The position numbers and the translations under genes were made by a program. This document shows, piece by piece, positions 38,711-47,798 of a stretch of DNA of 64,000 bases; position 1 is the first letter of the stretch, and each line of letters begins with the position of its first letter. The notes under the pieces were generated by a model. The model was given only the letters and a program-made list of their open reading frames with translations, was not told the DNA's origin and did not search any database. The stretch is from Alphaproteobacteria bacterium (lineage in GTDB: Bacteria > Pseudomonadota > Alphaproteobacteria > MPNO01 > UBA830): NCBI GenBank assembly GCA_965243135.1, contig OZ251539.1, positions 5,910,236 to 5,974,235 on the forward strand, written 5' to 3'.

Positions 38711-39266
38711 ATGTTGCATGGAATCGTCGTCGAACCTGCGAAGGACGAAGAGCGTTTCCAGAGGCAGGCCCATCTGGGCGCGCTGCCGAAGATCGGCGAA
38801 ACGCTATGGTATGTCGCTCGTTGGCGCGACGAATGGGTGGCGCTGATCGGCTTTTCGTCACCAGCGTTGAAGTGCCGCGCACGAGATGCCCGGTTGGGAT
38901 TTTCGAATTCACGGCTGCATCTCGTGACCAACAACAGCCGGTTCCTTATTTTGCCGGGTTGGCACCGTCCCAACCTGGCGTCTCGCTTGCTTTCGCTGTG
39001 CGAACAACGCCTCGCGTTGGCCGAAGCGTTTCGGCCACCCGTTGTTGCTTCTGGAAACCTTTGTCGACCGCTTCCAAGGCACGATTTATCATGCGGCGAA
39101 CTGGCGATGTCTCGGCCGCACGCGGGGCTTTCGCCGCTACCGCGACGGCTACAAGCCGAGCACCCCCAAACTCGTCTTCGTTCGCCCCCTGGTTCCGAAC
39201 GCCCGAACGCGGTTGAACGCCACCGGCCCCGTCTACCGTCACGGAGAGCCCAAGATCAACGCCGCA
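38711..39266 (+). pseudogene. DUF4338-like protein fragment (C-terminal half, one frameshift), running in frame into the ISAs1-type transposase
   Basis: …WVALIGFSSPALKCRARDARLGFS…LVTNNSRFLILPGWHRPNLASRLLSL… then LLETFVDRFQGTIYHAANWRCLGRTRGFRRYRDGYKPSTPKLVFVRPL. Confidence 0.5.
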
Positions 39267-40290
39267 ATGATGAATGCTTTGTACTTCGCCGATATTCCCC
39301 CGTCGGGGTCAGGGGAAGCGCCATCCTCTTGCCACTGTACTGGCGCTTGCGACCGGTGCCGCGTTGTGCGGCATGCGCAGCTTCCTGGCCATGGGGGAAT
39401 GGGCGGAGGATCTTGGTCAGAAGGGACGCGAACGGTTCCGCTGCAGGTATCGTGGAAAGCGCTACCACGTACCCAGCATGAGCACCCGATGTGCTGATTC
39501 GTGTCGACCCCGACAAACTCGACGCTGCTTTGAGGCAGTTCAACGCCGACTACGGCCTGGAAGATTCGGCCTACGCGATCGACGGCAAGACACTGCGCGG
39601 CGCAATCGACGATGAAGGCAATAAGGTCCATGTCCTCAGTGCCGTCGGTCATTGTACGGCTACCACGCATGTCCAGAAAAAGGTTGGGAAACTGCCGGCC
39701 GGGGACGAAGTCAAGCAAACCAACGAGATCGGCATGGTCATCCCCATGCTGGAGGAAATCAAGGCCGATCTCTCCGGCAAGACCTTTACTGTCGACGCCC
39801 TGCTGACGCAGAGAAAGCTGGCCAAGTATCTTGGCGAACGAGGTGCTTTCTACGTCTTCACCGTCAAGGGAAATCAGCCGAACTTGCTTGCCGATCTCGA
39901 ACTTCTCTTCAGGGACAGAGGCGAACCCGACTTCCGGGAAGGACCGGATCTGGAACATGGCCGAATCGAAGAACGAATGGACCTCCACCGAACTCAACGA
40001 CTATCTCGACTTTCCCGGCGTCGGTCAGGCTTTCGTTGCGCAATGTCATCGTCAAAAAAACTGGCAAGCAGGAAGTGGTCTATGGGATCACAAACCACAC
40101 TCCCGAGACCGCAACCCCTGCCCAAGTGCTTGCACCGCGGTCACTGGACGGTCGAAAACAGCAGCCACTACGTACTGGAATTGGGACGAGGACCGTCAGC
40201 AAATCCGCACCGGTCACGGCCCCGAGAACGCCTCACGGCTACGCCGTTTCGCCATTGGGCTAGCCAAGCACGCCTGCGTCGCTTCCGCTA
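39267..40290 (+). pseudogene. ISAs1-family transposase, two or more frameshifts
   Basis: YFADIP...RRGQGKRHPLATVLALATGAALCGMRSFLAMGEWAE, AIDGKTLRGA, VHVLSAVGH, FTVKGNQPNL, HRGHWTVENSSHYVLE. Confidence 0.6.
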
Positions 40291-40316
40291 TCCGGCGCCT
40301 CCAAAGAAGTCCTCGG

Positions 40317-44877: not shown

Positions 44878-46680
44878 CACGGTCCCTGGGGGAGAGAGGG
44901 ATGCCAGGAGCGGAGGCGCTCCTCGCCTGCGCCCCACGGCAGCCAGGCAGCCGGGCCTTCGGGCGGCGGACCGCGATGACGGGCGCAAGCATCGAGATAA
45001 TCAAGCAGCCAGCTGTACGGCGAGACGCCGGCCATCTCGAGCGTGCCGAAGATGGAATAGAGCATGCCCGCCAACCGCGCTCCGTCCACGCTTTGCGACC
45101 CGAACGAAAGCTTCCGGCTGATCGCGAGGCCGCGCAAGCCGCGTTCGGCGGGGTTGTTGTCCATGGGAACGGCCGCGTTGTCCACGAAGGTTGTCAAACC
45201 GTCGCGGTGGCGCAGCAGGGAGTCCAGAGGGCCGCGTTGCGCCGCGCTCTCCGGGAGCGCGTCCCGCGCCTTTTTCGCCGCCGCGAAGAACGCTTCGGCG
45301 AACCTCGCGAGCCGCCGCTGGGCGGCGGCGTTGTCCGGGCGCGCCAGACGCCTGGCGTTGAGACGGTATAATGCCGCAATGCGACGAAGCCACTTTTGGG
45401 CGAACTGCGCGAGGTTCGGGTAGCCGGTCTCGAGGTTGACGAAGTCGCGTCTGGCATGGACCCAACAATATGAAAGGACGATGCACCCTTCCATGACGCG
45501 CGCCAGCTTCCGATAGGCGGAGTAGCGGTCGCAGACCAGGTGAGCCGCCTGTTCGGGCGAGCCGAGACCCTTGAACAGCTCAAGGGCGGCTTCCGCGCTA
45601 CGCGACGGCGAGGATGCGGACCGCGTCCGCCGCCCGGGCGATCCAGGCCCAAGCGCGAGCGTTGCCTCCGTCCTCTTCGCCCAACTCCCGTATCCACCAC
45701 CCTGTCTCGTCGCCGTGAATGATCGGCGCCTTCGACAGATGCCGGGAGATCTCTTCGTCGAGCGGCTCGAACAGGCGCAGGAACCGTCGCTGGGCGTCCG
45801 CCAACGTGCCGGGCGCAATGGCGAGCCCGTGCTGGCCCAGCGCGCGGCAGACCGAACGCAGCGGACGATGCAGGCCATACCTCTCCGCCAGGACGTTCGC
45901 CCAGACGGAGACTCCGTACCGAGTGTTCGGGAACAGCCGCGCCGGGGCCGGGCCGACAGCCTCCTTTTCCGGTCGGCAGGTACAGGCCGGGCGCAGCCGC
46001 TTCCGTCGAATCCTCCGGACATAGGTGACGGTCCTGGTCTCGACGATCTCCGTGTCTTTCCAACCGTTCGAGACCCAGGCTTTGCCGCAGTCCGGGCACG
46101 TGCGCTCGTCCGGAATCGACTCCTCCTCGCGAACGGGCAGCTCGGGGCGCTGCGTGCGACCATGCGACGGCGTTCCCTGATGGCGCCCCCGGCGTCGACC
46201 GGTTGCCGCAGGCCGCCGCTCGCTGCGGCGCCCGAACAGCTCCCGGGCAAACCTGCGGCTGCGGGACTCCAGACTCTCGTTCTCCGGCGTCTCCGCAGTT
46301 CGACACGGGGGCGGCACCTCATGTCTCTTTATCTCGGCGTCGCAGCAACACTTCTCCGCTTTCTGGACCGCGGTCTCCAGCTCCCGGCCGAGATCCGCAT
46401 TCTCCCGGCGCGACGCGGCCAGCGCCAGACTGAGATCCGCACTCTCCCGGCGCGCCGCGGCCAGCTCCCGGCCGAGATCCGCACTCTCCCGGCGCGCCGC
46501 GGCCAGCTCCCGGCCGAGATCCGCACTCTCCCGGCGCGCCGCGGCCAGCTCCCGGCCGAGATCCGCACTCTCCCGGCGCGCCGCGGCCAGCTCCCGGCCG
46601 AGATCCGCACTCTCCCGGCGCGCCGCGGCCAGGCCGCCGCCCGACAACTCGGTCTCCGGAAGTGAATGTTCGCTCGACAT
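44877..46680 (-). pseudogene. IS66-family DDE transposase (single-ORF ISBst12-like type), one frameshift near 45600
   Basis: MSSEHSLPETELSGGG, coiled-coil repeats, CPDCGKAWVSNG, HGDETGWWI...; then in a second frame DRYSAYRKL...CWVHARRDF...PMDNNPAERGLRG...SPYSWLLDYL. Confidence 0.7.
46381..46640. repeat. 42-bp tandem repeat (about 5.5 copies) inside the IS66 transposase N-terminal coiled-coil region
   Basis: CTCCCGGCCGAGATCCGCACTCTCCCGGCGCGCCGCGGCCAG units; encode ELAAARRESADLGR x5. Confidence 0.85.
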
Positions 46681-47798
46681 AGCGACCGTGGAGCCAAAAA
46701 CGCGTGTCCAGCCCCCGCCCGAATCATTCGCCAAGCTCAATCGAACGTTTACTCCGCGAGGAGCGCCGGGCCGCCAACCAGGGGTGGACAGCCTCAGGCA
46801 CCCGGAACGAACGCGTTCTCCCGGTCAAGGATGTCTGGTTGAACCCTTGCCTGGAGGCGGACTCTCAACACCGTCACCCCACGACCGAACGCTTACGCCG
46901 CCTTTGCCGTCGTCCTCTTCCACTGCCATTTCCAGCCATGCCCAGCCCAGCATTCGCCCGTCGCTTACGCGACGGGCGACGGACTTCGTCAGTTCCGCAT
47001 GAGGGGCCGAAGTAGTCGGACAGGTCTGCGTCCACCACCTCGTGGTAGCCTTGTCTCAGCAGCTGGTGCACCCGATTGACCGCGTCGAGTGCGCCTCTTT
47101 CCGGTCTGTAGGCATACTGCTCCGGTTGCAGGTCGGCTTCGAAGATCGGCGACAATATGAGCATCGCCGCCGTTTGCGCCACCCTGCGCAGGGGATGCCC
47201 AGGGGCCGGAATTTTCCGCGCTGTTTCTTTGGGACCTGCCGTACCGCGGTCGGTCGGTAGGTTCCTTCTTTCAAGTCCCGCGCCAGTTCCTCAAGCCATT
47301 GGTCCACTCCTTGCGCTTCGATATTCGCTATCGTCGTTCCGTCCGTCCCGGCAGTCCCTCCGTTTCGACGGACGTCCTGCCAAGCCGTGAACAGCACTTC
47401 GTAGCTCCATACCTTGTCGCATAGCGAGTAGAACCGGAAGCTCGGGGATTCCTTCGCTTGTAACGTTGTCTGGAGTCTCCGAACTTTCTCCGAGGCTGCT
47501 AGGCTTTTGCCAGTCCTCATGTCCTTTCTTCCTTCCAACGCTTCTCTCGACCCAAGGCCCCTTTCCTCCACCGGCATTACCCGGCTTCTCCGGTACTACG
47601 GGCCTCTCCGCCACCCTGCCGGCCCGGCCTGCCCCTCGCGGGGTTCCGGTTGACTCGTGCGCGTCACCGACAGGGCTTCCCGTGTTGCTGCTTCCTTCAT
47701 CTTCCATGCGTGCCGACCCCCGGCGGAAACGGTCGGTGCTCTTGTCGTTCTCTTCCCGACCGTCGGCGGCTTTCCCCTAGTTTCTGGAGGGTCAGCTT

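Follow-up and report, generated by a model that had tools for sequence, protein, structure and literature searches.

At least three lineages of DDE insertion sequences carry a predicted Mom-like GNAT domain of the DruA family (PF14236, formerly DUF4338) as a dedicated component

The 64,000-nt stretch of DNA analysed here (the window) contains seven copies of a PF14236 module; tblastn with the intact protein and database fusions as queries found all seven that a sequence-only reading of the same DNA had counted. Membership in the family previously called DUF4338, proposed in that reading, is borne out by Pfam HMM searches, in which the intact copy scored 149.7 bits against a gathering cut-off of 27, the degenerate window copies scored above or near the cut-off, and the database fusions P0121 and P0241 scored 82–85 bits. 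The accompanying remark that the family lacks an assigned function is outdated: PF14236 now carries the Pfam name "DruA", it has been described as a GNAT domain by Burroughs and Aravind (PMC10853773), and it is Mom-like by profile alignment (see below). Only the module gene at 44008–44880(-) is intact (290 aa; tblastn match 44011–44988(-), 100% identity). The other six of the seven copies are pseudogenes: an IS66-type copy at 7214–8175(-) (three frames, E-value 5e-113), a third IS66-type remnant at 18922–19357(-) (1e-21), which adjoins IS66-type ends at 18552 and 18893, the module parts of an IS4-type fusion at 40360–41188(+) (two frames, 3e-20) and of a short ISAs1-type fusion at 38723–39218(+) (two frames, 2e-14), the module of a second IS4-type fusion at 15649–16041(+) (2e-11), whose N-terminal part lies at 6652–6991, and a short-form remnant at 49881–50322(-) (two frames, one frameshift, 2e-28). 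With six of seven copies decayed, the window is uninformative on module activity. Besides the seven copies, two small C-terminal module fragments were seen at 4633–4758 and 46776–46847, the latter within the inverted repeat of an IS66-like element.

The intact module gene belongs to a complete IS66-like element of 2916 bp (43981–46896(-)), made of a transposase gene and the module gene. This element is bounded by perfect 27-bp terminal inverted repeats (GTAAGCGTTCGGTCGTGGGGTGACGGT), which run on imperfectly to about 111 bp, and by an 8-bp target duplication (GCCGCCTT) at 43973–43980 and 46897–46904. The 3' end of the module gene abuts the right inverted repeat, and its GTG start (44880–44878) overlaps the TGA stop of the transposase (44879–44877), the GTGA overlap already noticed by eye. 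The module is a separate right-end gene, translationally coupled to the transposase. The latter (44877–46740(-); PF03050, E-value 7e-31) is read in two frames with one apparent frameshift near 45600–45670 (tblastn with an intact 776-aa homologue places the frame switch between 45670 and 45545), so that the earlier count of a single intact copy holds for the module gene but not for the element that carries it. Tandem repeats were observed in the N-terminal region of this transposase.

The IS66 family is characterized by GTAAGCG termini and an 8-bp duplication, and the window element shares both with it, together with the PF03050 DDE domain; the NCBIfam IS66 model gave 147 bits with the C-terminal ORF alone, below a 180-bit cut-off that is meant for the whole protein. 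The canonical tnpA-tnpB-tnpC organization was not found in this element: the left repeat and the transposase ORF start lie only 156 bp apart and the remainder holds the module alone, which leaves no room for tnpA or tnpB. The closest known IS66 members are those without these two genes, the ISBst12 group of ISfinder. Whereas IS66 has TnpA and TnpB upstream, the accessory gene of the window elements encodes a Mom-like GNAT 3' of the transposase, and their inverted repeats of about 111 bp are long, unlike those of known IS66 members. In intact relatives the transposase is about 776 aa, and no zf-IS66 or leucine-zipper domain was detected in it by Pfam. A second IS66-like element (7185–10425(-)) has exact GTAAGCGTTCG ends and an 8-bp duplication (CGTATCGT) at 7177–7184 and 10426–10433, and encloses the degenerate module at 7214–8175 and a degenerate transposase. 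A third (38448–43613(-)) has been gutted, keeping its two ends and an N-terminal transposase remnant (42715–43273), and ISAs1-type and IS4-type fusion elements are now nested within it. 

The IS4/Tn5-like element at 40323–42646(+) contains one fused gene, with at least two frameshifts, in which the module is followed by a complete Tn5-like transposase. Its ends read CTGCCTGTCCCCCAC and GTGGGGCACAGGCAG, and an 8-bp duplication (GGCTAGTC) is found at 40315–40322 and 42647–42654. The module portion of this gene spans 40384–41188(+), and its C-terminus continues in frame into a Tn5-type DNA-binding domain. Residues 9–457 of Tn5 transposase align downstream of the module, and stitching the frames together gives a 747-aa product with 80% identity to the intact 754-aa P0121, a protein with PF14236, PF14706, PF01609 and PF02281. 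The last three domains (Tnp_DNA_bind, DDE_Tnp_1 and Dimer_Tnp_Tn5), along with a match to the NCBIfam equivalog IS4_3 (297.4 bits, cut-off 160), place the partner among the Tn5/IS50-like members of the IS4 family. A second element of this type is split in two by about 8.6 kb of inserted DNA: the left part (6590–6991(+)) holds the left end and the N-terminal part of the module, the right part (15632–17535(+)) is 81% identical in DNA to 40736–42652, and the duplication CACTAGGT lies at 6582–6589 on the left and at 17536–17543 on the right. A complete Tn5-like transposase is thus common to Tn5/IS50 and to these elements, which differ from IS50/Tn5 in an N-terminal Mom-like extension of about 300 aa and in their duplication, 8 bp with a central (C)TAG instead of the 9 bp produced by Tn5. 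They display a marked target preference, NN(C)TAGNN.

Immediately upstream, an ISAs1-type fusion pseudogene (38711–40325(+)) consists of a short module (38711–39217) followed by DDE_Tnp_1_assoc and DDE domains; frameshifts are numerous in it, and the IS4-like insertion has cut it at the 3' end. By tblastn it matches residues 1–566 of the intact 586-aa P0241. The start of the fused protein falls exactly at 38711, the N-terminal helical part of the module being natively absent. Assignment to ISAs1 is given by the NCBIfam equivalog (86.5 bits, cut-off 70) and by the DDE_Tnp_1_assoc plus DDE_Tnp_1 pair that the fusion has in common with this family (YbfD/YdcC-type, H-repeat-associated); elements of this type also resemble ISAs1 in their CAGGG... 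termini and 10-bp duplication. Unlike plain ISAs1, they bear at the N-terminus a Mom-like domain, which measures about 185 aa (about 300 aa in a long form) and brings the proteins to roughly 590 aa, with long forms reaching about 740 aa. The seventh copy (49872–50307(-)), initially taken as free-standing, is closest to this short form (53% identity to residues 67–154 of P0241 by tblastn) and is cut downstream by a group II intron (49462–49601(-), Rfam RF02003; 5' end near 49601). A tentative DDE_Tnp_1_assoc-like motif lies downstream of it (E-value about 2).

Intact versions of every window architecture exist in public databases, including fusions of the module with a complete Tn5-like transposase (about 780 aa) and with an ISAs1 transposase (about 590 aa). 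The three partner families named in the sequence-only reading were confirmed with Pfam and NCBIfam models. In 77 of 77 foreign genome loci an IS66 transposase lies upstream, its stop overlapped by the module start as ATGA or GTGA, and single-chain IS66-module fusions, with the module C-terminal to the transposase, occur occasionally (P0473, P0538). The IS4-type fusion, thought at first to be unusual, forms at least 120 clusters at 90% identity, some of them multi-copy. One protein (P0372) is identical on 37 contigs, and one gene pair (P0096) was found in six different contexts. Inverted repeats and duplications surround the module in foreign copies as well: P0175 is identical in six contexts with 8-bp duplications, and P0242 is flanked by a 10-bp duplication inside a Pyr_redox_2 gene. 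The closest Tn5-like relative seemed to be module-free; this was rejected, as the module lies upstream of it, frameshifted. The association is widespread in environmental bacteria, and no description of it was found in the collection of papers searched.

These data show that at least three DDE insertion-sequence lineages have the module as a dedicated part. In the IS66-like elements it is a separate coupled gene, in the Tn5-like IS4 lineage it extends a complete transposase by about 300 aa at the N-terminus, and in the ISAs1 lineage the N-terminal extension measures about 185 aa (about 300 aa in the long form). The suggestion that it was not cargo struck by insertions is upheld by the IS66 overlaps, by the in-frame and single-chain fusions, and by the analysis of repeats and duplications, which enclose the module in four window elements and place its ORFs inside rather than outside them. 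The description of its partners as three different transposition chemistries does not stand, as each of them is a DDE transposase, with PF01609 common to the IS4 and ISAs1 types. That the fusions are decay artefacts of insertions in or beside pre-existing free-standing PF14236 genes is scarcely credible: the window is indeed a graveyard of nested insertions with six of seven copies reduced to pseudogenes, but the module sits within the repeats and duplications, and hundreds of unrelated genomes contain intact fusions and coupled pairs, each genome having them in several contexts.

Mom of phage Mu depends on acetyl-CoA and iron and turns adenine in DNA into N6-methylcarbamoyl-adenine. In an AlphaFold2 model of the intact 290-aa module (pLDDT 89.4), an N-terminal hairpin and three helices are joined by a linker to a Mom-like GNAT core (residues 109–290), predicted to follow the GNAT order beta1-alpha1-alpha2-beta2-4-alpha3-beta5-alpha4-beta6-7. 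Prediction and alignment show the modelled core to have a GNAT fold, with Mom (PDB 8bv8) as its closest solved relative. Sequence identity to Mom is about 13%, and the long form has an extra N-terminal helical domain that Mom lacks. When profiles of the module and of the Mom family were compared with hhalign, the match had a probability of 97.5% (E-value 8.8e-12, 164 columns). It paired H130, Y131, R192, S206, E236 and Y245 of the module with H48, Y49, R101, S114, D139 and Y149, the functional residues of Mom (PMC7261163), and conservation at these sites extends over 360 homologues and 146 cluster representatives. In the IS66 and ISAs1 types each of the six Mom residues has its counterpart (position 236 being E or D), and the basic C-terminal segment of Mom is retained too. 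In contrast, 118 of 120 IS4-type fusions have a proline at 131, the Tyr49 equivalent, and the Tyr149 equivalent (245) is often F, L, V or W, so that Mom-type iron chemistry is not general across the module. The Pfam Mom model (PF25680) did not match the intact window protein, and its best score, with ISAs1-type domains, was 26.1 bits, near but below the 27.1 cut-off. Finally, mom is a separately regulated late gene, while the module is coupled or fused to a transposase.

The family takes its name from DruA of Druantia type I, which belongs to the same Pfam family. Membership of the window proteins in that system was rejected: PADLOC DruA models gave weak matches to the module (19.5 and 14.4 bits; E-values 7e-5 and 4e-3) and none to the IS4 or ISAs1 fusions, and a comparison of the large window ORFs with Pfam revealed no druB–druE neighbours, including the large DruE helicase. 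DruA resides in defence islands, whereas the module lies between IS ends, its intact gene standing between the IS66 transposase and the right inverted repeat. Related PF14236 domains do occur in DNA-directed conflict systems, namely Druantia and DndF fusions (PMC10853773).

Our preferred reading, held tentatively, is that the module is an integral and portable Mom-like, DNA-directed domain that would be tethered to the transposase and act in cis. The data suggest that in these transposons it marks or reads DNA as part of their movement, and we infer a role in transposition itself. The module would act on DNA rather than on proteins and, being either tethered to the transposase or produced in stoichiometric amounts with it, would do so at the element ends or at the target. 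What it binds there may be a flipped base, probably adenine, which would probably receive an acyl or carbamoyl group; the mark could then gate transposase binding, a self-encoded counterpart to the control of IS10 and IS50 by Dam methylation, or serve to protect the DNA being mobilised. IS50 is regulated through Dam sites, whereas the IS4-type fusions may bring a modifying domain of their own. In those with proline, the chemistry may be altered or lost, with DNA or CoA binding kept. An autonomous tethered activity fits the occurrence of the module in N-terminal or C-terminal position or as a separate gene, and the insertion of window elements into one another argues against a strong role in target immunity. 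It speaks against a DNA-directed reading that fold and residue conservation do not fix the substrate of a GNAT, and most GNATs acylate proteins or small molecules. A stronger version, which we consider somewhat doubtful, holds that the module is an active nucleobase-modifying enzyme of the Mom type, which DDE transposases have taken up independently on at least three occasions, and that the insertion sequences use it to mark their own ends or insertion sites with N6-acyl- or carbamoyl-adenine; the effect would be to set the timing or the extent of transposition, or to keep host nucleases off the DNA while it moves.

Three other functions have to be weighed against this cis-acting role. The module might be a passenger anti-restriction or anti-defence gene whose global DNA modification protects the carrier replicon without taking part in the transposition reaction. 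Anti-restriction is the established role of Mom (PMC7261163), the module has the fold and residues of Mom, and its separate gene in IS66-type elements lies at the very end of the element, a position that mom also has in Mu. Such genes are, however, not normally fused in frame to a transposase, as seen here in three lineages and in both orientations, and the ATGA/GTGA coupling ties dosage to a trace-level protein, which suits local action better than genome-wide modification, so that we regard a passenger as unlikely. Loss of the Tyr49 equivalent, and often of the Tyr149 equivalent, in the IS4-type fusions, the helical domain of the long form and the NN(C)TAGNN preference would all agree with a degenerate GNAT serving as a non-catalytic architectural or DNA-binding domain, which binds DNA, CoA or another protomer, for example in synapsis or target choice. 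The IS66 and ISAs1 types nonetheless keep the full set of Mom-activity residues, including the CoA-pyrophosphate serine, which is unexpected for a pure scaffold and makes this explanation distinctly unlikely. Acetylation of the transposase, or of a host nucleoid or defence protein, as a means of regulating transposition appears improbable: Mom is clearly the best structural match, the family-specific arginine (R101/R192) implicated in base recognition is invariant, and the relatives in Druantia and DndF fusions belong to DNA-directed conflict systems.

Insertion sequences are usually viewed as a transposase and its ends, and to our knowledge their accessory functions are few and mostly unexplained, as for TnpA and TnpB of IS66. 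In thousands of environmental genomes a single enzyme-like domain is firmly built into three transposase families, and its only characterized relative, Mom, carries out an exotic DNA base modification. If the module modifies or reads DNA, it would represent a new layer of transposition control or self-protection, provide a tractable single-polypeptide model for Mom-type chemistry, the mechanism of which is still debated, and suggest what DruA of Druantia type I and the DndF-fused DUF4338 domains may do. If it is an active Mom-type enzyme, these elements would encode DNA hypermodification, which would in turn suggest a function for DruA in Druantia type I. "DruA" matches on such transposon proteins should not be counted as defence systems; at present the annotation of these proteins goes no further than "IS4/ISAs1 family transposase" or "DUF4338 domain-containing protein".

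A tblastn search of the window with the intact ORF as query recovered seven copies of the module, as counted in the sequence-only reading, together with two short C-terminal fragments (E-values from 2e-11 to 5e-113). The proposed assignment to DUF4338 was equally sound: the intact copy matches the corresponding Pfam model PF14236, now named DruA, with 149.7 bits for a cut-off of 27, and the degenerate copies exceed this cut-off or come close to it. The intact gene (44008–44880, minus strand) encodes 290 aa from the GTG of a GTGA overlap with the transposase gene, a start set by homologues; this overlap, reported previously, is found at 44880–44877. 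That only one copy is intact is true of the module, but the transposase of the same element has one frameshift relative to intact homologues. In the window, the module has partners from three transposase families: IS66 (a DDE transposase), IS4 (a complete Tn5-like enzyme), and ISAs1. The idea of three different transposition chemistries has to be abandoned, because every one of these partners is a DDE transposase, and PF01609 occurs in both the IS4 and the ISAs1 type. The window (~65% G+C) is mostly a heap of nested insertion sequences, and so much insertion of these elements into each other speaks against a strong target immunity.

In every resolvable case, the module is located inside the element. 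The intact IS66-like element (43981–46896) has 27-bp perfect termini starting GTAAGCG, which extend imperfectly to ~111 bp, and is flanked by the 8-bp direct repeat GCCGCCTT; its right repeat is immediately abutted by the module stop codon. A second IS66-like element (7185–10425; flanks CGTATCGT) contains a decayed module. The IS4-like fusion element lies at 40323–42646 (flanks GGCTAGTC), and its second copy (6590...17535; flanks CACTAGGT) is split by ~8.6 kb of inserted DNA. The ISAs1-type copy (38711–40325), whose 3' end was severed by the IS4-like insertion, matches residues 1–566 of an intact 586-aa fusion protein. This copy and the IS4-like element at 40323–42646 are together enclosed by the ends, at 38448 and 43613, of a third IS66-like element that has been gutted. 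The short copy (49872–50307), previously described as free-standing, is closest to the ISAs1-type short form and is truncated by a group II intron that starts near 49601 on the same strand. Analysis of inverted repeats and target duplications, named beforehand as a possible refutation, placed the module within them, and not outside the elements, wherever this could be resolved. Two further features of these elements may be mentioned: CGCCTGGTGTG is present at both junctions of the insert that splits the second IS4-type element (6992–15631), which holds the second IS66-like element and other ORFs, and, in the IS66-like transposase, the coiled-coil-like N-terminal region includes a repeated ELAAARRESADLGR-like peptide encoded by tandem DNA repeats at 46368–46632.

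Database searches for the module beside or fused to these transposases identified intact versions of all three arrangements. Database relatives of the intact module protein number more than 8000 and are typically 290–295 aa long. One of them, P0096, was found unchanged in sequence in six distinct genomic settings, and in all of these its gene overlaps by 4 nt the preceding IS66 DDE gene (~777 aa where called whole). In species-representative genomes, 499 stretches code for close relatives, and an IS66 transposase is directly upstream in 77 of the 77 loci retrieved, with an ATGA overlap in 71 and a GTGA overlap in 6; one MAG (OZ253541.1) harbors at least 15 copies. An exhaustive search of representatives also revealed single-chain IS66 transposase–module fusions of 883 and 810 aa, as well as ISAs1 fusions with the long module form. 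The profile used in this search, at 701 positions, still included transposase columns. Plain DDE transposases therefore contribute to the counts (31,480, 15,262, and 3,646), which do not tell how large the module family is, and we took from the search only the list of fused representatives.

The frameshift-corrected product of the IS4-type window copy matches at least 120 clusters of intact 775–785-aa proteins containing PF14236, PF14706, PF01609, and PF02281, labelled "IS4 family transposase" where the source gives a name. One such fusion, P0175, is identical in six contexts and has the same termini as the window element; one genome carries another such fusion, without sequence differences, on 37 contigs. 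The Tn5 transposase of the PDB aligns from residue 9 on, downstream of the module, which indicates that the module is an add-on to a complete transposase. The nearest Tn5-like relative seemingly devoid of the module has it upstream, frameshifted. The 8-bp duplications of the P0175 copies (TCCTAGCC, CCCTAGCC, AGCTAGCG, and GGGTAGCG; loci L008–L013) share a central (C)TAG with those of the window (40315–40322/42647–42654 and 6582–6589/17536–17543), so that these elements have a clear target preference, with the target spectrum NNCTAGNN, and differ from Tn5, which produces a 9-bp duplication. Element ends starting at CTAG were considered and rejected, since they leave no duplication and foreign copies put CTAG within the 8-bp duplication. 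A more divergent Tn5-like transposase remnant (50814–51704, minus strand) shows 26% identity to residues 476–744 of the database protein P0121, and its upstream sequence yielded no module. Among 72,556 plasmid records, only two contain the module, both from Candidatus Thiodictyon and both with IS-associated copies. On a Candidatus Thiodictyon plasmid (NZ_CP020372.1, 279093–286941; locus L104), an integrase and IS91-family transposase pair interrupts an IS4-type fusion gene; PGAP consequently gives the pieces of this gene two different names, "DUF4338 domain-containing protein" for one and "IS4 family transposase" for the other.

The corrected ISAs1-type product matches intact proteins of ~590 aa with PF14236, PF13808, and PF01609; in one case, P0242, the repeats are of the CAGGG type and a 10-bp duplication lies within a Pyr_redox_2 gene. 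Proteins of ~355 aa with PF14236 and PF13808 were rejected as a separate DDE-less architecture: they are fragments, as the alignment continues into the DDE domain and most are on ~2-kb contigs. We also rejected the ISKra4-like transposase as a fourth partner family, because it belongs to a self-contained element downstream of the short copy, outside the module. These architectures are plentiful in public sequences, where they are annotated only as IS4/ISAs1 family transposases or DUF4338 proteins.

In the AlphaFold2 model of the intact module protein (pLDDT 89.4), a linker joins an N-terminal part, made of a small hairpin and three helices, to a GNAT-type core (residues 109–290). DUF4338 was already called a GNAT domain by Burroughs and Aravind (PMC10853773) with regard to a fusion to DndF. 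The Pfam Mom model gave near-threshold matches to ISAs1-type domains, and hhalign aligned a profile of 70 module cores with a Mom-family profile (Mu Mom and ten phage homologues) over 164 columns with a probability of 97.5% and an E-value of 8.8e-12; matches to the single Mu Mom sequence were weak (E 0.005 and 0.07), and PDB sequence searches with module profiles returned either Tn5 transposase only or no match. Mom activity depends on six residues (Karambelkar et al., PMC7261163), which all pair with module positions: H48 (acetyl-CoA binding) with H130, Y49 (acetyl-CoA and iron binding) with Y131, R101 (substrate) with R192, S114 (CoA pyrophosphate) with S206, D139 (iron) with E/D236, and Y149 (acetyl-CoA and iron) with Y245. 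The basic C-terminal segment of Mom is also aligned. Taken together, the model and the profile alignment show that the predicted fold of the module and its set of active-site residues are those of a GNAT that modifies DNA adenine. Many myovirus proteins of 500–700 aa, homing-endonuclease-like by annotation, contain a domain matching the module fold (BFVD searched with model m0a866640989a), which may point to a further setting among mobile elements for Mom/DruA-like GNAT domains.

The module is not a Druantia system, given that the PADLOC DruA models reach only 19.5 bits on it and miss the fusions, and that no druB–E genes are found nearby. Nor is the adjacency an accident of IS insertion: the module is inside the repeats and duplications, and intact fusions and coupled pairs exist elsewhere. 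It is an integral part of the elements, portable between transposase families. Because it is either fused to the transposase, at one end or the other, or translationally coupled to it, how much of the module is made and where it goes both depend on the transposase. IS10 and IS50 are under Dam control. We tentatively favor, with a little less than even confidence, an integral Mom-like module acting in cis on DNA, at the element ends or the target. It would probably bind a flipped adenine, which in the IS66 and ISAs1 types would probably also be acylated or carbamoylated; the mark could gate transposase binding, as a self-encoded version of Dam control, or protect the mobilised DNA. The earlier proposal of a transposition partner rather than cargo is supported in part, and the observation behind it stands.

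The conservation of the Mom counterparts bears on the other readings. H, R, and S are near-invariant in all three IS-borne types, and all six residues are kept in the IS66 and ISAs1 types. A Mom-like anti-restriction passenger would share these residues; we consider it unlikely for a module so tied to its transposase. In the IS4 type, position 131 is a proline in 118 of 120 sequences and position 245 is variable (Y, F, L, V, or W), the loss of both tyrosines being limited to the clade nearest the window; there, the domain may have altered or lost catalysis and retained binding. For the module as a whole, a non-catalytic DNA-binding or architectural domain is about as unlikely, or slightly more so. 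A protein acetyltransferase, to which a GNAT fold would also be suited, appears quite improbable beside the alignment with Mom. Insertion sequences with accessory functions are a known kind, and the literature searched (ISfinder being outside its scope) yielded no paper on the association of the module with transposons or on its specific link to Mom.

Other features of the window include a low-G+C island at 34000–38400 (42–54% vs. ~65%), in which a 1060-aa ORF with EELGRV-type tandem repeats (35165–38347) has no Pfam or NCBIfam match. Three long ORFs without Pfam match, at 54009–57197 (1062 aa), 57559–59733 (724 aa), and 60469–62148 (559 aa), may be spurious at this G+C content. An Alph_Pro_TM gene points to a probable alphaproteobacterial host. 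The group II intron is in three pieces, all on the minus strand (49462–49601, 46874–47577, and 43688–43980), made of an Rfam RF02003 D1–D4 domain and reverse-transcriptase ORF fragments, one with a YADD motif. The intron is interrupted by the intact IS66-like element and by an ISKra4-family element (47799–49423), whose 24-bp inverted repeats are imperfect and whose ORF (47875–49281, minus strand) encodes 468 aa; at 43613, the intron is cut short by a further IS66 end.
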